Assembly (NCBI GenBank): GCA_016935095.1
Contig: JAFGRO010000076.1
Span: forward strand, 15,030-79,029
Length of the DNA: 64,000 nucleotides
From: Candidatus Woesearchaeota archaeon
Lineage (GTDB): Archaea > Nanobdellota > Nanobdellia > Woesearchaeales > GW2011-AR15
Direction of reading: 5' to 3'
Shown: piece after piece, positions 2 through 57,834 of the stretch
Layout of the letters: each line of letters opens with the position of its first letter
Numbering within the stretch: the stretch's first letter is position 1
Position numbers and translations under genes: made by a program
Notes under the pieces: generated by a model
What the model was told of the DNA's origin: nothing
Database searches by the model: none
Seen by the model: the letters and a program-made list of their open reading frames with translations, nothing else

Positions 2-223
2 ATTTATGATGTGATAAATCTTTATTCAGGCATGTCCAATAGCCAGATATATAAGGATTTAGAAGAAAAAACCCTTGTTTTAAAATGGCTTGTTAAGAAC
101 AATATAACAGATGTCAATGAACTGGGGCTGATTATGAGTGATTATTATACAGACAAAATTGAACTTTTAAATAAGATTACAGGGGATGTTTCTCAGAAGG
201 AAATAATTACTGAGGCCAGGTGA
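2..223 (+). CDS. C-terminal fragment of a gene running off the window start; function not recognised. Possibly the C-terminus of the pilus-assembly ATPase that usually precedes TadB/TadC genes.
   Basis: Open frame without a stop from the window edge. Stop TGA at 221-223 overlaps the GTG start of the next gene. Confidence 0.3.
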   Translation: MYDVINLYSGMSNSQIYKDLEEKTLVLKWLVKNNITDVNELGLIMSDYYTDKIELLNKITGDVSQKEIITEAR

Positions 224-1062: not shown

Positions 1063-2058
1063 ATGGCAAACATCTTATATAGAATAGGGAAAATACTTGT
1101 GCCATTTAAATATGATCATAAATTAAAAGAATACGTCAAAAAAACAGGAAGCACAAAAGTGCATTATGAATTATATGCTTTAATGTTTATTTTTAGCTTT
1201 CTTTTTTCAATACTTATTATCTATTTTCTTTTGCCGAAACTTGGTTTTATTATGATTGTTTTTTTTCCTGTTTTGATTATAACTATTTTCCTTGTTTTTT
1301 CTCTTTTGGTATGGATGTATTATGAGATTAAGCTTTTTAAGAGAAAAGAAAAAATTGAAAAAGTTTTACCGGATTTTCTCGGAGAGGTTGCAGTAAACTT
1401 AAGGGCAGGAATGACCTTTGATAAGGCCTTGTGGAACTCTGTAGAGCCGGAATACGATGTTCTGGCAAAAGAGATTGAGATAGTTGCAAAAAAGGTGATG
1501 AGCGGAAAGGATACAGAAGATGCATTAAGGGAATTTTCGTCAAAATACAAGTCACCTATATTAAGGGAATCTATTGATCTGATTATTGTTGGTTTGAGGT
1601 CAGGCGGGGAGATATCTGATTTAATCGAAAGGGTAGTTGACACAGTAAAACAGGCCTCTTTCCTAAAAAAAGAACTGGTTGCAAATATTATGAGCTATGT
1701 TATTTTTATTTCAATGATTTCTCTTTTTATTGCTCCTACACTTTATGCATTATCTTATAATTTGATGCTGATAATCCAGGATCTGGGGACAAAATTGACT
1801 TCGTCAGGCGCTACAGGCATGGTCTCTGGTTTAAGCACTTTTGGACAGGTTGTCATCAGCAGGAAGGACTTTGTAGATTACTCAAGATGGTGCATTGTTA
1901 TTATCTCAGTAACAACTTCCCTTATTATAGCAGATCTTAGAGAGGGAAGCATAAAAGGCAGCATTAAATATGTGTTTATTTTTATAGGCATTTCTTTAAT
2001 AGTTTATGAGATTATGTTGATAATGTTTACTGCAATTTTTTCAGGGATGGTTGTTTAA
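1063..2058 (+). CDS. TadC/FlaJ-like pilus assembly membrane protein (T2SS F domain), second of two
   Basis: 331 aa. TM helices flank a cytoplasmic T2SS-F-like domain (VLPDFLGEVAVNLRAGMTFDKAL...). Translationally coupled to the preceding gene. Confidence 0.6.
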   Translation: MANILYRIGKILVPFKYDHKLKEYVKKTGSTKVHYELYALMFIFSFLFSILIIYFLLPKLGFIMIVFFPVLIITIFLVFSLLVWMYYEIKLFKRKEKIEKVLPDFLGEVAVNLRAGMTFDKALWNSVEPEYDVLAKEIEIVAKKVMSGKDTEDALREFSSKYKSPILRESIDLIIVGLRSGGEISDLIERVVDTVKQASFLKKELVANIMSYVIFISMISLFIAPTLYALSYNLMLIIQDLGTKLTSSGATGMVSGLSTFGQVVISRKDFVDYSRWCIVIISVTTSLIIADLREGSIKGSIKYVFIFIGISLIVYEIMLIMFTAIFSGMVV

Positions 2059-2100
2059 TTTGATTTAATTTCCTTTTACTTTTAATTTTTCATAATTAAT

Positions 2101-2236
2101 GGAGAGCACACATTGCCCTTGCTGTAATTGAAGACGTCCCTCAATGGTTCCCTGCTCTTATCTAATTAGAAGGGGCGCTTGTGGAACGTCCTGTTTAATG
2201 TCAAGGAACAATCATCCAATCTCACCAAGCCTGAAT
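2101..2236 (+). repeat. Conserved ~135-nt GC-rich intergenic element, copy A of 3 (candidate structured ncRNA or MITE-like family)
   Basis: Shares blocks with copies at 38915-39050 and 43006-43143: TTGCCCT, GTCCCTCAATGG.TCCCT, GAAGGGGCGCTTG.GGAAC, ATCCAATCTC.CC.AAGCCT.AA. Lies about 175 nt upstream of the pilin gene on the same strand. Confidence 0.6.
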
Positions 2237-2409
2237 ATAAATTTTAATTAAATTATATTTTATTTTCACTAAGCCTGATTATTAATTCTATAAAAAAATT
2301 CTTAAAATAAATAAAAGTTGATAGAGAAAATTTTATATAGGTGAAGATATAGAGAAAAATTAATAAATCCGTTTATTATTAGAAAATTTTAAAAAGAGGC
2401 TGATTTACA

Positions 2410-5122: not shown

Positions 5123-5572
5123 TTAAGAGGGCAATCCAAAAAACTTAAATATAAACTTCAATTTCCTATTAATATATTATATAAATGGGTCTTTATATGA
5201 GCTGAACTTTGTTTTGCAGTGAATATAAAACACTCTTATATAATACAGCCCGTCACGAGAGTACCCATAGGAGCTCACGTTAAAAACAAGCTATGAGCCT
5301 GGGAGTTAGTGTTTCGGGCAACATTATTATTCATAATTAAAATCAGGGCAAGTATTACACTCCATTTATCATTTATTCAATTTTTTTGAAAATAAGAGAG
5401 AATAAATTAATAGATACTTGTTCTGAATTCATCCAGCATAAGAGGTGTAGCAATTATGTTCACTAATCATGAATTTACCTTTTTATTTAGGTATAAGCTC
5501 TTTCTTATGTTGGATTGTGTAAAATAGTTGTATAGAAACATTTGTTTTGAAAATTGACAGGAGGAGACAAAA

Positions 5573-6848: not shown

Positions 6849-7988
6849 TTATTTTTTATAAAATACAATAATTTTGGATTCGTTTCTTAGTTTTGAGATA
6901 TAATCTAAATACAATTCCTGTTGTTTTTCCAGCTGCAAAGACTCTTCTATCTGAGGTTTAACTAATTCCAAATCAATAATCTCTTCTGCTTTTCTTTCAT
7001 GCATTTTTATTATATGAAAACCAAATACTGTTTCAACAATCTCTGAAACCTGGTTTTCTCCTAATTCAAAAGCAGCGTCTTCAAATTCAGGAGCCATCTG
7101 TCCCCTGATGAAAAACCCAAGATTTCCTCCAATCTGAGAAGAGGGGCAGTCAGAGAATTCACGAGCAAGTGTTTCAAAATCTTTACCTTCTTTGATTTCC
7201 TCCAGAATATTGTTTATTTTTAGAGTAGCCTCTTCTTTTGAGAGGTTACTTGTACATCCTAAACTTTCATTATGGCAGATTAAGATATGGCTTGCATTAA
7301 TGCTTTCCGGAATTGTAAACTGCTCTTTATTATTATTATAAAAATTCTTTACTTCCTCTTTACTTACCTCAACAGTTATTGTCTTGTTTAGTAATTTGTT
7401 AATTATAAATTCATTTTTATATAATTTAAGAAACTCATCATATTCAATACCCTGTGTTTCAAGCTCTGTTTTGAGCTGTTCTTCATCCATCATATATGAA
7501 GCTAATGTCAGATTAATGCTTTCTTTGACCTCTTCTTCAGAAACATCAATCCTGAGTTTTTTGGCTTCTCTTAGCAATAGTTTTTCATCAATCATCTGTT
7601 CAAGCAATTTTTCTTTTGGGATAATTGATTTATATTCAGAAGGTAGTTTTTCAAATTGGTTATCTAACTCTTTTAAAGTTATTTTTTCATCATTGACAAC
7701 AGCGGCAATAGCATCATTTCCAGTTCCTGATATTTTTTGTTTTATTTGTACTAGAAAATTCATTATAAAATTATCACTGCTTTCAATTTCTAAACTTCCT
7801 AGATAAATCATTGCACATCCTAAGCCGAGAATTAAGATTATACCTATAATAAGTATTGCATTTGAAATTTCCCTTTTTAGATAATCTGATTTTAGTTTAC
7901 TTATATTTTTATCATTGTTTTTAGGCTTGTTTTTTTTGGTAAGCTTTTTTTTCCTGATGCTCTTGACTTCAGATTTTTTATTTGCCAC
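6849..7988 (-). CDS. Membrane-anchored parvulin-type peptidyl-prolyl cis-trans isomerase (SurA/PrsA-like)
   Basis: Lys-rich N-terminus and one TM helix. C-terminal PpiC/parvulin domain (ASHILI...GGNLGFF.RGQMAPEFEDAAFEL). Confidence 0.65.
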   Translation of the reverse strand: MANKKSEVKSIRKKKLTKKNKPKNNDKNISKLKSDYLKREISNAILIIGIILILGLGCAMIYLGSLEIESSDNFIMNFLVQIKQKISGTGNDAIAAVVNDEKITLKELDNQFEKLPSEYKSIIPKEKLLEQMIDEKLLLREAKKLRIDVSEEEVKESINLTLASYMMDEEQLKTELETQGIEYDEFLKLYKNEFIINKLLNKTITVEVSKEEVKNFYNNNKEQFTIPESINASHILICHNESLGCTSNLSKEEATLKINNILEEIKEGKDFETLAREFSDCPSSQIGGNLGFFIRGQMAPEFEDAAFELGENQVSEIVETVFGFHIIKMHERKAEEIIDLELVKPQIEESLQLEKQQELYLDYISKLRNESKIIVFYKK

Positions 7989-8620: not shown

Positions 8621-8735
8621 TCTTAGTTCACTTATAAGTTTAGAGTGAATTGTATCTATAAATTTAAAGCTTTTGTTTTTTTTGGAAAATTTTAAATATA
8701 TTCAATTTTCCTAATTTACCCAGAGGTGATTTCAG

Positions 8736-9095
8736 ATGAAAAAAAAAGATTATATGGTAAGAATAAAGGACAGCCAGATTTCATGGACTAACAAAGGAAC
8801 TTATAAAAATCTTCAAAAAACAATTAATGACCTTTTATCCAATGAAGAGCTCATTCAAATAGAAAATTCAATATCTCACTTACATCTGATAATAAAAGAA
8901 TATAATCATAAAGTCCCTCAATATTCTTACTTTGTTTATGAAGAGCCGATCTTTTTTTCATTGAAAGGAACGTATAAGAATCTGCTTAAGGTGGTAAACA
9001 ATATTCCTGAGGGGGAAGAATTCTTCCAGATAACAACTACGCCGACGCATCTTCATTTAATAACAAGAAAACCAAAAGGAAAAACTAAGCTTTAG
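8736..9095 (+). CDS. Hypothetical protein made of two tandem ~45-aa repeats
   Basis: KGTYKNLQKTIN...ISHLHLII repeated as KGTYKNLLKVVN...PTHLHLIT. Confidence 0.35.
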   Translation: MKKKDYMVRIKDSQISWTNKGTYKNLQKTINDLLSNEELIQIENSISHLHLIIKEYNHKVPQYSYFVYEEPIFFSLKGTYKNLLKVVNNIPEGEEFFQITTTPTHLHLITRKPKGKTKL

Positions 9096-11623: not shown

Positions 11624-11792
11624 TGGGGACAGAGGGATTTGAACCCTCATCCGGTGGTCACTTCATCAAGCGACTGACCACATTCTAAGTCATTGTCTTT
11701 CGACTCATCGCTCCAACACTGGAGCCACCTATTCTAGCCAAGATGTACCCTTCTTGAATTTGATTTTTTCAAAAGGCTTATACTATGTCCCC
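11624..11792 (-). tRNA. Intron-containing tRNA gene (169 nt; isotype/anticodon not resolved by eye; probably more than one intron, one in the D-loop)
   Basis: Minus-strand ends form a perfect acceptor stem GGGGACA ... TGTCCCC-A. Canonical T-arm GAGGG-TTCAAAT-CCCTC. D-stem GTA/TAC flanks a ~23-nt hairpin insert (TTTTGAA...TTCAAGA). About 95 nt of extra sequence sits between the arms. Confidence 0.5.
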
Positions 11793-11955
11793 GTCTTTAT
11801 TCTATGGATTAGAGGATTATATATAAAAGTTTTGGGAAATTTATTATCTTAGAAAATATATATTTTACATAATAAACATTTATATACCCTTTTACACAAT
11901 ATTAATATTAAGAGGTGTTGTTTTAATCAAAAACATAACCAAGCACGATCAATAT

Positions 11956-29400: not shown

Positions 29401-29796
29401 ATGTCAACCGGAATCTACGCATTAATAATCAAGCTTAACTCTGATAAAAATATTAAAATAGGTAAAAAAGGAATTAATTTTTTTCCTAAAGGATATTATG
29501 TTTATGTCGGTTCTGCTTTGAACAATCTGGAAAAACGCATTGCCCGGCATAAATCAAAACATAAAAAACTAAGATGGCATATAGATTATTTCCAGCAATA
29601 TGCAGAGATAATTGATGTAAAAACCATTCAGACAAATAAAAAACTGGAATGTTGGCTTAGCAAAAAAATCGAAAAAATCTCAGATAAACTTATAATGAAA
29701 GGATTCGGCTCTTCTGATTGCAGATGCAGGACACATTTGTATTATTTTGAAAAAAATCCAAGTATCGAACTAGAATTACTACTAAATAATGGTTAA
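29401..29796 (+). CDS. DUF123/GIY-YIG superfamily nuclease-fold protein
   Basis: GIYALII ... GYYVYVGSA ... RIARH ... WHIDYF motifs. Confidence 0.55.
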   Translation: MSTGIYALIIKLNSDKNIKIGKKGINFFPKGYYVYVGSALNNLEKRIARHKSKHKKLRWHIDYFQQYAEIIDVKTIQTNKKLECWLSKKIEKISDKLIMKGFGSSDCRCRTHLYYFEKNPSIELELLLNNG

Positions 29797-29854
29797 AAAA
29801 GAAAGATTTAAATACTAGATATACTTTTATTGATTCATTATGAGGTAATTTGCT

Positions 29855-38798: not shown

Positions 38799-38914
38799 AA
38801 TATAAGAGTTAATTGAATTAAGGGTATTTATTTTTTATTAATTTTCTTTTAATTTTCTTTTACTTTTAATTTATCATAAATGATTTTTTTTATTTTTAAT
38901 AGTTTAGTAATTAA

Positions 38915-39050
38915 GGGAGGGTGCATGTTGCCCTGGCTGTTTAACATGATGTCCCTCAATAGCTCCCTGCGCATATTTAATCAGAAGGGGCGCTTGGGGA
39001 ACATCTGCTTTGAGATTCAGGAGAAGTTATCCAATCTCCCTAAGCCTAAA
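38915..39050 (+). repeat. Conserved ~135-nt GC-rich intergenic element, copy B of 3
   Basis: Same conserved blocks as copy A. Lies about 200 nt upstream of the PfkB kinase gene on the same strand. Confidence 0.6.
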
Positions 39051-39255
39051 TAAAAAAGTATAAATTAGAATTATTTTTGTTTGATGATTTTTTATTCTGT
39101 CCTTTTTCCAAGCCTGAAAATAAAAAATAAATACTTAATCCCTCTTTTTTTTCAAATCTAAAACTAAATTTGGAATTGAATAATATTAATATCTTTTTTC
39201 AGCAAAATTTATAAAACCAGCATATATATTTCATTCTGTAAAAAGAGGTCTTTCA

Positions 39256-42954: not shown

Positions 42955-43005
42955 TCTATTAGATTAATAATTATACATTATATTAATATTTTACTTTTAG
43001 TAATT

Positions 43006-43143
43006 GAGGAACAGCACTTCTTGCCCTTCATGTGTCAGATGATGTTCCTCAATGGCTCCTTTCACTCATTATAATGCAAGGGGCGCTTGGGGAACTTCTG
43101 GTTAAATATTTAAAGCAAATATTACATCTCCCCAAGCCTAAAA
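43006..43143 (+). repeat. Conserved ~135-nt GC-rich intergenic element, copy C of 3
   Basis: Same conserved blocks. Lies about 100 nt upstream of the presenilin-like gene on the same strand. Confidence 0.6.
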
Positions 43144-43245
43144 CTAAATTTTAAAAAAATTTGAATTAAGAAATGCCTGTCATATTGATTTTGATTAGAG
43201 ACTGAAAACAAAAATAATTTAAATCTTTGCAATATAGGGATTCTT

Positions 43246-46184: not shown

Positions 46185-46300
46185 TATATTTCCTTGTCTA
46201 ATTAAATACTCCTTAAAAGTAGTAAGAGTATATAAATCTTTCGTTTTGTAGTTATTAAACAGTAGTAAAAATAGAAAGATTTATATAGTAAATTTATATC

Positions 46301-55416: not shown

Positions 55417-56433
55417 ATGACTGAAAAAACAAGCCTGGGAGAGGTAATTGTTGATAGTGTTGAACTCAGGAAACTATATGAATTGAGAAAACCCAAATAT
55501 GAGAGACTTACGGATTTAGTCTATCTAATATTGAATTCCTCTCTGGAAAGAAACAACATAAGAATACATTCAATGAAAAAAAGAGTGAAAGATTATTCAA
55601 GTTTTCTTGAAAAGGTTGAAAGAAAGAGATATAAAGATCCGTTTTTACAATGTACGGACCTGGCAGGATGCAGGATAATGTGTTTGTTTCTTTCGCAAAT
55701 AGAACAGATAAAAAAAATAATTAATGAAGAATTCGAAGTTATTGAGATAAGCGACAAAAAAACCACAAAAAAATTTGACCAGTTCGGTTATTTGTCTTTG
55801 CATATGCTGGTAAAAAGCCCTAGAAAACGACTAAATTTAATAGAATATTCAGAGCTTAAAGATTTGGTTTGCGAGATTCAGATAAGGACGATACTACAGG
55901 AAGCTTGGGCTGAAATTGAGCATTACCTGAATTATAAGACTACAAAAGAAGAGAGAAATGAAGATCTGCTTAGAAAGATTTTCTCTTTGGCAGGGATGTT
56001 TGAAGTGGCGGACTCAACATTTGAAGATATCCACAAAGGCTTTTCAAAGCTCATCACAAAAAGACTAGCGGGAGATAAAGAGACAATTACAGGTCTGAAT
56101 CTGTTCAAATTTTCCCAAACCTATTTTTCATGGTATAAGCAGGAATGGAATAAAGTAACAGAAAGAGCATTTTATAAACTGAGCAATGAAATAAAAAAGA
56201 TTAATATTAAATCAATAAATAAAATAAAAGCACTGCTGGAAAAATATAATTCAGAGCTTAAAAAATATGAGCTTTATCACAAGGAAAAAGAAAAAAAAGT
56301 CGAATTAAGATTTTTTTCTCCGGTTGGGTTAATAAGGGCAGCGCTTGCCTTGGAATATGGGAAGAAATTTGATTTGATATTCGGGTTGAAGGGATATAGT
56401 GAGAGAGTTAGGAGAGAAACTGAAAGTGGTTAA
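55417..56433 (+). CDS. RelA/SpoT-type nucleotidyltransferase (small alarmone synthetase / toxSAS-like) with ~150-aa C-terminal extension
   Basis: Synthetase-domain motifs RVKDYSSFLEKVERKRY ... CTDLAGCRIM ... FGYLSLHMLV ... EIQIRTILQEAWAEIEHYLNYK. Confidence 0.65.
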   Translation: MTEKTSLGEVIVDSVELRKLYELRKPKYERLTDLVYLILNSSLERNNIRIHSMKKRVKDYSSFLEKVERKRYKDPFLQCTDLAGCRIMCLFLSQIEQIKKIINEEFEVIEISDKKTTKKFDQFGYLSLHMLVKSPRKRLNLIEYSELKDLVCEIQIRTILQEAWAEIEHYLNYKTTKEERNEDLLRKIFSLAGMFEVADSTFEDIHKGFSKLITKRLAGDKETITGLNLFKFSQTYFSWYKQEWNKVTERAFYKLSNEIKKINIKSINKIKALLEKYNSELKKYELYHKEKEKKVELRFFSPVGLIRAALALEYGKKFDLIFGLKGYSERVRRETESG

Positions 56434-57702: not shown

Positions 57703-57812
57703 TGCGGGGGACGTGATTTGAACACGCGCAGGCACTAAGCCACATGGACCTCAACCATGCCCGTTTGACCATTCCGTATTCATTTTATTAATGAATTCTC
57801 CGGCACCCCCGC
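57703..57812 (-). tRNA. tRNA-Leu(GAG) with a ~22-nt hairpin intron in the D-loop (non-canonical position)
   Basis: Minus strand GCGGGGG-TG-CCG-GAG[AATTCATTAATAAAATGAATAC]GGAATGGTCAAA-CGG-G-CATGG-TTGAGGT-CCATG-variable arm TGGCTTAGTGCCTG-CGTG-TTCAAAT-CACG-T-CCCCCGC-A. Anticodon loop TT-GAG-GT. Long variable arm (type II). No encoded CCA. Confidence 0.75.
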
Positions 57813-57834
57813 TTAATTAAGCAAAAGGTCCGAG

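Follow-up and report, generated by a model that had tools for sequence, protein, structure and literature searches.

A 64-kb stretch of DNA from the metagenome-assembled genome (MAG) of a Candidatus Woesearchaeota archaeon, called the window here at its full length, carries three copies of a GC-rich intergenic element that spans about 135 nt. Our best explanation for this element, offered tentatively and with somewhat less than even confidence, is that it represents a family of small RNAs of ~135 nt, restricted to one lineage, which are each transcribed as a unit of their own and are probably bound by protein. The copies form a non-coding repeat family with a common anatomy and a narrow distribution. 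This family lies outside any that has been described, and is therefore new, although its kind, an orphan small RNA or repeat family, is familiar. The element is very likely functional, given that invariant blocks are present in every copy and that the linkers have diverged by about 30%.

Copies of the element, their conservation and their distribution

A previous examination of the letters of this DNA (the sequence-only reading) had reported three copies, designated here A, B and C, and all three are indeed present on the plus strand at the sites it gave (Table 1). The core block AAGGGGCGCTTGKGGAAC occurs exactly three times in the window when up to three mismatches are allowed, versus 0.02 occurrences expected from shuffled sequences. 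The blocks that had been quoted as shared, TTGCCCT, GTYCCTCAATRGYTCC and ATCTC.C.AAGCCTRAA, were likewise recovered as cited. The description of the copies as GC-rich islands in an AT-rich genome is also accurate, with the elements reaching 42-47% GC compared to an average of 26% for intergenic DNA (33% for the whole window). No further copy was detected in the window with a covariance model built from the copies and run with all filters off.

Outside the window, an exact pattern composed of two blocks was searched against 185,579 species-representative genomes, and returned one true locus and two chance matches. The true locus resides on a 15-kb contig (JAFGLI010000009.1, hereafter L127) of another Woesearchaeota MAG, GCA_016928115.1, and includes one full copy (D, positions 8711-8850, minus strand) and one half copy (E, about 64-121, minus strand) located at the contig end. 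Copy E retains the upstream box and, of the element itself, the initial 58 nt as far as CCCTCAAT, with its conserved blocks intact, which brings the known total to four full copies and one half copy in two genomes. The half copy (L127 1-121, minus strand) continues into two AU-rich hairpins, AAAAACCU-GAAA-AGGUUUUU and AAAAAAGC-AUA-GCUUUUUU, and may represent a pseudogene left by truncation, an RNA variant of shorter length or the edge of an assembly.

The element body is organized as four near-invariant blocks separated by variable linkers. Invariant columns make up five of seven in the 5′ block (columns 15-21, which include UGCCCU), 15 of 21 and 18 of 20 in the 5′ and 3′ arms of a central hairpin, and 13 of 17 in the 3′ block AUCUC.C.AAGCCU.AA. 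The corresponding counts for the variable parts are 5/15 for linker 1, 4/17 for the hairpin loop and 8/27 for linker 2. Base composition is split in the same way within the element, with 49-71% GC in the conserved blocks and about 31-32% in the linkers. The fact that the blocks are invariant while the linkers diverge (roughly 70% of sites) argues for purifying selection acting on every copy, as judged from the alignment. Moreover, the neutral decay of a dead repeat, in a genome under AT pressure, offers no explanation for this pattern. We regard this block-wise selection as our strongest result, and it argues for a function and against a recent expansion of transposable elements of the miniature inverted-repeat type (MITEs).

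Pairwise identity over the ~135-nt body is 67-72% among the window copies, and is 67-76% across the four full copies A to D. Copy D, despite its location in the other genome, resembles A (75.6% identity) no less than B does (72.4%). Therefore, the copies do not cluster by genome, which indicates that they are old.

Both element-bearing MAGs are represented in sequencing run SRR13394437. Logan short-read contigs from this sample terminate inside copies A, B and D or at their edges: contig L125 (2.8 kb) ends at window position 2142 inside A, L009 starts at approximately window position 39078, and L128 starts inside D. These breaks suggest the presence of repeats, of further copies in the community or of strain variants. 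A 6.7-kb contig near the right end of the window, of which about 5 kb extends past that end, carries no copy.

The sequence-only reading had advised a check on whether the family is wider, and copies were found in one more MAG from the same metagenome and in none of the other collections scanned. A second exact pattern gave only five chance matches in JGI metagenomes, three scans of IMG/VR produced no copy, and blastn searches of phage and plasmid collections returned nothing relevant. About 88 kb from five related MAGs, which were reached through homologues of the presenilin-like signal peptide peptidase (SPP) and of a DRG-type GTPase (55-74% amino-acid identity), yielded no copy with the covariance model and nhmmer, and one of the five is syntenic across PfkB-HerA-SPP but lacks the element. 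Given the five copies seen in about 85 kb of the two positive genomes, a similar density would place about five in these ~88 kb, and finding none points to a narrow and patchy distribution. A search of the literature on the conserved sequences of the element and on structured RNAs of DPANN archaea found nothing relevant.

Anatomy of the element and its possible identity as a small RNA

The consensus computed with RNAalifold features a central imperfect hairpin of 58 nt, in which the arms GAYGU.CCUCAA..GY.CCCU and AGGGGC..UUGKGG.ACRUC enclose a variable loop of 17 nt. The stem noted in the sequence-only reading is part of this hairpin. Across the four full copies, 95.6% of the cells of its 17 pairs are occupied by paired bases, versus 35-60% when the 3′ partner is slid by one to three columns. 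A bulged U, a 1x1 C/A loop and a 2x2 loop are identical in all full copies. Such a fixed asymmetric bulge and fixed internal loops suggest that a partner reads a single-stranded hairpin rather than a duplex palindrome.

Compensatory base changes had also been reported for this stem. The halves GACGT/ACGTC, GATGT/ACATC and GATGT/ACTTC had been read correctly from copies A, B and C, but the third combination produces a U-U mismatch and thus represents no compensation. Compensatory change is confined to a single position, at which copy D adds a third type of pair (C-G, U-A and A-U overall) and copy C has U-U. Two additional C-to-U changes within the hairpin preserve pairing as G-U.

Several sequences can compete for the G-rich 3′ arm of the hairpin. 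Constrained folds reveal that the TTGCCCT block can pair alternatively with GGGGCG of this arm, and in the alternative fold both the invariant UGCCCU and the CCCCAAGC tail serve as partners of the G-rich arm. Copies A, B and D favor the hairpin by 6-11 kcal/mol, whereas tail pairing wins in C, where the minimum-free-energy fold joins GCUUGGGGA to the 3′ tail UCUCCCCAAGC instead. We also considered a pseudoknot joining the hairpin loop to the 5′ end, but A and B would form it with different partners, and C and D do not permit it. Resemblances to an HDV-like fold, to hammerhead, twister and pistol cores, to a kink-turn (K-turn) and to the 11-nt tetraloop receptor were dropped upon reading the alignment. 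Mimicry of helix 45 of 16S rRNA and of the anti-Shine-Dalgarno sequence was set aside as well, since the likeness is limited to the common GGGGAAC.

The limits of the element resemble those of a gene. Homology among the copies begins about 35-40 nt upstream of the initial GG, in an AT-rich box with the sequence TTTAATTT(C/T)CTTTTACTTTT(A/T)ATTT...GTAATTAA, and stops sharply past AAGCCT(G/A)AA, with T-runs located 6-25 nt beyond the 3′ block. The exact 16-mer CTTTTACTTTTAATTT is found in the window only at A and B, and the box is nearly identical in copy D of the second genome. In copies A and B, a module that joins the terminal ~12 nt of the element to ~12 nt of its 3′ flank is duplicated downstream. 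When one mismatch is allowed, CCAAGCCTGA gives seven matches versus 2.9 expected. Near position 43171 of locus C there is a possible decayed trace of the same module (AATGCCTGTCA).

Comparisons with known RNAs gave no match. The whole window has zero matches to Rfam 15 at gathering thresholds, and a permissive scan of each copy (E<=10) produced only chance matches of hairpin or microRNA type, at 8-25 bits versus thresholds of 40-100. As the sequence-only reading had concluded, the element does not fit the architectures of 5S rRNA, signal recognition particle RNA, tRNA, C/D box RNA or H/ACA RNA. A tRNA, including intron-bearing or split forms, can be dismissed because ARAGORN returned nothing with or without introns and no copy has a T-loop motif, whereas genuine tRNAs of the same genome carry canonical T-arms. 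Against a C/D box small RNA (sRNA) are the lack of conserved boxes and a length of 135 nt rather than the expected 50-70 nt or so: AUGAUGU occupies the C-box site only in B and C (GAAGACGU in A and AUCAAGU in D), and CUGA is present at the 3′ end only in A and D. An H/ACA sRNA is disfavored by the absence of a conserved ACA after the hairpin (the sequences there are AACAAUC, AGAAGUU, AGCAAAU and AGCAAUC), of tandem G-A pairs and of a K-turn.

The element is non-coding. No reading frame is open in all copies, every frame being stopped in at least one of them, and the conserved blocks lack third-position variation. Copy B does include an open reading frame (ORF) of 42 codons (38925-39053), but the same frame has one to two stops in A, C and D, of all three stop codon kinds. 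No match was obtained when six-frame chimeric translations of copies B and D, designed to detect other copies through spuriously called ORFs, were compared with 5.8 billion proteins, and when the ORF of copy B was searched with phmmer against 1.84 billion representatives, the only matches were two weak ones to large unrelated proteins. That this ORF encodes a small protein is effectively refuted by these results, even though its ATG lies 5 nt past GGGAGG and its end coincides exactly with the 3′ end of the element.

These characteristics can be accommodated by a model in which the copies are paralogous small RNA genes of about 135 nt on the plus strand, each forming its own transcription unit. 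The AT-rich box about 30-40 nt upstream would provide a TATA box and a promoter-proximal element, transcription would start at or just before the GG, and the 3′ end would form at the conserved ...CCAAGCCUGAA block and the following T-runs, yielding a discrete plus-strand RNA that ends after AAGCCUGAA. The end module is present twice in A and B, and its tandem occurrences may, as a guess, be doubled end-formation signals. The RNA is predicted to fold around the 58-nt hairpin with its fixed bulge and internal loops, flanked by the invariant C-rich blocks UUGCCCU (5′) and AUCUCCCCAAGCCU (3′), which would be single-stranded; each of the two is also complementary to the G-rich arm on the 3′ side. 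Hairpin and C-rich blocks would then be recognized in a sequence-specific manner by a partner, most likely a protein, with the RNA acting in trans as a scaffold, decoy or regulator. The RNA may also toggle between the hairpin and the alternative fold.

In favor of the small-RNA interpretation are the block-wise selection, the maintenance of high GC content within 26% GC intergenic DNA, and the gene-like limits, namely an upstream box conserved in two genomes, a sharp 3′ end and T-runs. The hairpin with its high proportion of paired cells, the non-coding nature of the element, its lack of a tie to the neighboring genes and the lack of mobility genes among the 50 window ORFs scanned speak for it as well. 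A number of observations weigh against it. We infer transcription, its strand, the transcript ends, the partner and the mode of action from the DNA. Of the 17 hairpin pairs, 12 never vary, as would fit a DNA site, and only one has changed on both sides. Between 73 and 251 of 500 shuffles match the observed covariation measures, such that covariation is suggestive but lacks statistical support at four sequences, a number that gives almost no power to such statistics. Folding energies of A (z = -0.14) and B (z = -0.44) are no better than those of shuffled sequences, and only C is exceptional (z = -3.5), by virtue of a different fold. Wobble counts favor the plus strand weakly (5 G-U and 6 mismatches, versus 3 and 8 for the minus strand), and outside the hairpin no pairing scheme for the 5′ and 3′ arms is valid in all copies. 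Moreover, the occurrence of the family in two MAGs of one metagenome, at non-syntenic sites and with one truncated copy, fits a mobile element. Finally, all four full copies are followed within 82-206 nt by a gene on the same strand, an arrangement that would be expected of a cis element and that has a probability of about 1 in 16 by chance.

Precedents exist for RNAs of this general type. Hgc RNAs of Methanocaldococcus and Pyrococcus were reportedly recognized by Klein, Misulovin and Eddy in 2002 as GC-rich islands of non-coding RNA in AT-rich genomes, and their function is said to have been unknown at discovery. Like these RNAs, the element occurs as discrete GC-rich islands of about 100-150 nt in an AT-rich intergenic setting, is non-coding and has an AT-rich promoter region. 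Unlike them, it is multi-copy with diverged paralogues, belongs to a mesophile-type DPANN genome, is confined to two MAGs and has no sequence or covariance-model similarity to any Rfam family. Bacterial sRNA families such as Qrr1-5, OmrA/B and GlmY/Z also have diverged, unlinked copies, each with its own promoter and terminator. The element shares with these families the existence of several diverged and unlinked copies in which invariant segments sit inside variable ones, but it is archaeal and relies on a long bulged hairpin and C-rich blocks rather than a seed and a Rho-independent terminator.

DPANN archaea have tiny genomes and are host-dependent, and we know of no described non-coding RNA repertoire for them. 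Should the element prove to be an RNA that has a protein partner of its own, it would represent a lineage-specific regulatory or ribonucleoprotein component in a group where few regulators are known. If it is instead a mobile cassette that bears a promoter, it would reveal an unusual route by which small RNA genes pass from one symbiotic archaeon to another. The reach of the element is modest so far, with two MAGs from one spring community and no particular pathway indicated. Judging by the isolate names, the spring may be Zodletone spring, on which a metatranscriptome study has been published (PMC4582958).

Table 1. Positions of the element copies and their parts in the window
Feature	Position	Strand	Basis or remark
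Copy A body (GGAGAG...AAGCCTGAAT)	2101..2236	+	Model R1, 155.2 bits, E 3e-29
Copy B body	38915..39050	+	Model R1, 155.0 bits
Copy C body	43006..43143	+	Model R1, 144.8 bits; also whole in Logan contig L009
Hairpin, copy A (GACGU.CCUCAA..GU.CCCU - 17-nt loop - AGGGGC..UUGUGG.ACGUC)	2133..2190	+	RNAalifold
Hairpin, copy B	38948..39005	+	RNAalifold, pair counts
Hairpin, copy C	43041..43098	+	U-U at the covarying position; U-G at one CCCU/AGGG pair
Upstream AT-rich box, copy A (GATTTAATTTCCTTTTACTTTTAATTTTTCATAATTAAT)	2058..2100	+	Candidate TATA box/promoter-proximal region; common to B and D
Upstream box, copy B	38846..38914	+	Box of A, then an AT-rich insertion of ~30 nt ending TAGTAATTAA
Upstream box, copy C (TATATTAATATTTTACTTTTAGTAATT)	42976..43005	+	Shorter form of the A/B box
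Invariant 5′ block TTGCCCT	2113..2119, 38928-38934, 43021-43027	+	Alignments
3′ block ATCTC(A/C)C(C/T)AAGCCT(G/A)AA	2219..2235, 39034-39050, 43126-43142	+	Alignments
Repeated last ~12 nt and 3′ flank, locus A (TCACTAAGCCTGATTATTAATT)	2265..2288	+	44 nt downstream of the first
Repeated 3′ end module, locus B (TTTCCAAGCCTGAAAATAAAAAATAAAT)	39104..39132	+	67 nt downstream; nhmmer E 0.038

Mobile DNA, leader RNAs and other explanations

An old non-autonomous mobile or duplicative DNA repeat, similar to MITEs or to the palindrome-associated transposable elements (PATEs) of IS200/IS605 type, is unlikely but remains the strongest competitor of the small-RNA interpretation. The hairpin may in this case be a single-stranded-DNA recognition structure for a transposase encoded elsewhere, and the copies may have been domesticated. 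The probability that we assign to this explanation derives from the patchiness of the family (two co-resident MAGs, and none in the ~88 kb of the five related MAGs), its non-syntenic insertion sites beside unrelated genes, the truncation of copy E and the 3′-end duplications of A and B. It also gains from the location of all three window copies on one strand, from the assembly breaks at or inside copies, and from TTAC in the upstream box and TCAA in the hairpin, which we take to resemble IS608-type cleavage motifs. As with MITEs and PATEs in general, the element is short, non-coding, intergenic and multi-copy with a prominent hairpin, is patchy between related genomes, and exhibits truncated copies and assembly breaks.

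However, the family departs from these mobile elements in several respects. The sequence-only reading had named terminal inverted repeats and target-site duplications as the features by which a MITE would be recognized, and we saw no consistent inverted repeats and no such duplication beside the element. Candidate inverted repeats are of low complexity and AT-rich, have only 12 of 14 matches, occupy non-equivalent positions in A and B and are missing at C, and neither end of the homology is an inverted copy of the other. The element is not enclosed by direct repeats, the only duplication being that of its 3′ end (Table 1). Sequence identity of 67-76%, with no clustering by genome among the copies from the searched part of each genome, does not correspond to a recent burst of MITEs. 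Furthermore, invariant blocks amid decayed linkers indicate that each copy has been selected. Relative to PATEs, the element has one central hairpin rather than two subterminal ones, and the copies remain homologous for at least 14 nt upstream of TTAC, the motif next to which an insertion of IS608 type would lie. Pfam scans of 50 window ORFs identified no transposase, integrase, reverse transcriptase or Cas protein, and IMG/VR and the phage and plasmid collections contained no copy.

Two other classes of mobile or recombining repeats were rejected. Integron attC sites and Vibrio cholerae repeats share with the element imperfect hairpins of about 60-140 nt, conserved extrahelical bases and strand specificity. 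Unlike attC sites, the copies form no array with one repeat per cassette, being separated by 37 kb and 4 kb of DNA in which conserved, syntenic housekeeping genes occupy both strands, and they lack an RYYYAAC/GTTRRRY core pair at the hairpin base and an integrase. A template/variable repeat pair of a diversity-generating retroelement was discarded because the differences between copies are not adenine-specific and there is no reverse transcriptase.

A second possibility, which we consider quite improbable, is that the element serves as a cis-acting 5′ leader, either riboswitch-like or protein-binding, that switches between the hairpin and the alternative fold to control the downstream gene. 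The sequence-only reading had correctly placed each window copy upstream of an unrelated plus-strand gene, at distances of 174 (A), 206 (B) and 103 nt (C). The downstream genes encode a pilin-like protein without a Pfam match (A), a PfkB kinase (B) and a presenilin/SPP protease (C), and in the other MAG copy D precedes a 52-aa acidic peptide. Each full copy therefore precedes the next gene and points in its direction. The presence of several copies per genome before different genes is the usual pattern for riboswitches, as are orientation along the downstream gene, invariant nucleotides around a helix and alternative pairings. Both mutually exclusive sets of pairing partners are invariant, with the alternative fold within 6-11 kcal/mol in A, B and D and tail pairing in the minimum-free-energy fold of C, and a second CCAAGCCUGA module is located farther downstream in A and B.

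Unlike riboswitches, however, the element precedes unrelated genes of no common function, each seemingly provided with its own promoter. T-runs and a box resembling a TFB-recognition element and TATA box (BRE/TATA) separate each element from the start codon, and the element is 80-200 nt from the ribosome-binding site. Moreover, in the nearest relatives the element is missing in front of the SPP and PfkB orthologues, where the intergenic space is too small to hold one. T-runs and a promoter box of the type used in the clade, positioned between element and gene, are expected from separate transcription. This arrangement favors an independent transcription unit over a 5′ leader, although little weight can be given to promoters called in DNA that is AT-rich.

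Unrelated genes of several Woesearchaeota MAGs are preceded by a recurring promoter-like consensus, TAGTAAAAATAGAAAGATTTA[AT]ATAGTA, with 80-92% identity, at window positions 46263-46299 and 29776-29821, at L127 2745-2781 and 14597-14642, and on related contigs at L131 9077-9114 and L010 ~7948-7974. This consensus is probably the BRE/TATA of the clade with an upstream TAGTAA element. At the start of a 120-kb contig of one related MAG (L011 1-100), a unit of ~40 nt (aaacaaaacaatattcacttcgttcttaagttttgtaaaa) is tandemly duplicated directly upstream of the SPP gene and is unrelated to the element.

Equally improbable in our estimation is a two-state structured RNA that constitutes a new class of a small DPANN lineage, being ligand-sensing, protein-sensing or catalytic, and that has spread as a promoter-RNA-terminator cassette between co-resident Woesearchaeota. 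The G-rich arm of such an RNA would toggle between its hairpin partner and the invariant UGCCCU and CCCCAAGC blocks.

It is still less probable that the element functions as a double-stranded DNA site, for example as a platform for a chromatin, replication or regulatory protein, with no RNA made. The conservation is mainly of sequence rather than of pairing, C-rich and G-rich motifs are repeated (three occurrences of CCCT, one of CCCC and two of GGGG), copies A and B have no notable thermodynamic stability, and the strand preference of wobble pairs is weak. On the other hand, the fixed bulge, 1x1 loop and 2x2 loop between the arms are not the type of feature conserved by duplex palindromes that are bound by dimers, and the one varying stem position is complementary in three of four copies. 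The length of 135 bp, the sharp and oriented boundaries and the promoter-like box on one side only are also contrary to this explanation, and the surroundings of the copies show neither an orc1/cdc6 gene nor an AT-rich unwinding element. Archaeal origin-recognition boxes were dropped when the alignment was read.

Genomic setting and other features of the window

The assignment of the window to DPANN archaea by the sequence-only reading proved correct, as this DNA belongs to a Woesearchaeota MAG. Its presenilin-like protease is identical to NCBI protein JXB41_08490, which is encoded on a contig of 88.9 kb. The 50 ORFs scanned with Pfam carry ordinary cellular domains, mostly of housekeeping type, or have no match. 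Domains identified include HerA/NurA, Cdc48, Hef, topoisomerase I, several aminoacyl-tRNA synthetases, GatD/E, ribosomal proteins and RNA polymerase subunit D.

The window also includes an intergenic island (5246-5330) of about 50% GC inside a gap of 30% GC, in which a hairpin GCCCG...CGGGC is followed by AACA. The island has no Rfam match at gathering, and may be an H/ACA-like or other small RNA.

Two unusual tRNA genes are evident on the minus strand. A tRNA-Leu-like gene at 57703-57815, which was missed by ARAGORN (with or without introns) and by Rfam at gathering, exhibits the acceptor GCGGGGG/CCCCCGC, the T-arm GCGTGTTCAAATCACGT and the anticodon-loop sequence TTGAGGT, and has an apparent insert of ~22 nt in the D-loop, a non-canonical intron position. 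A second missed tRNA gene of about 170 nt (~11626-11795; acceptor GGGGACA/TGTCCCC, T-arm GAGGGTTCAAATCCCTC) is apparently interrupted by two long inserts.

Finally, an ORF at 55417-56433 of this archaeal genome carries a RelA/SpoT nucleotidyltransferase domain (Pfam E 1e-22), and a locus of a related MAG (L129, 5615-7522) encodes a full RelA/SpoT-like protein with HD and TGS domains.

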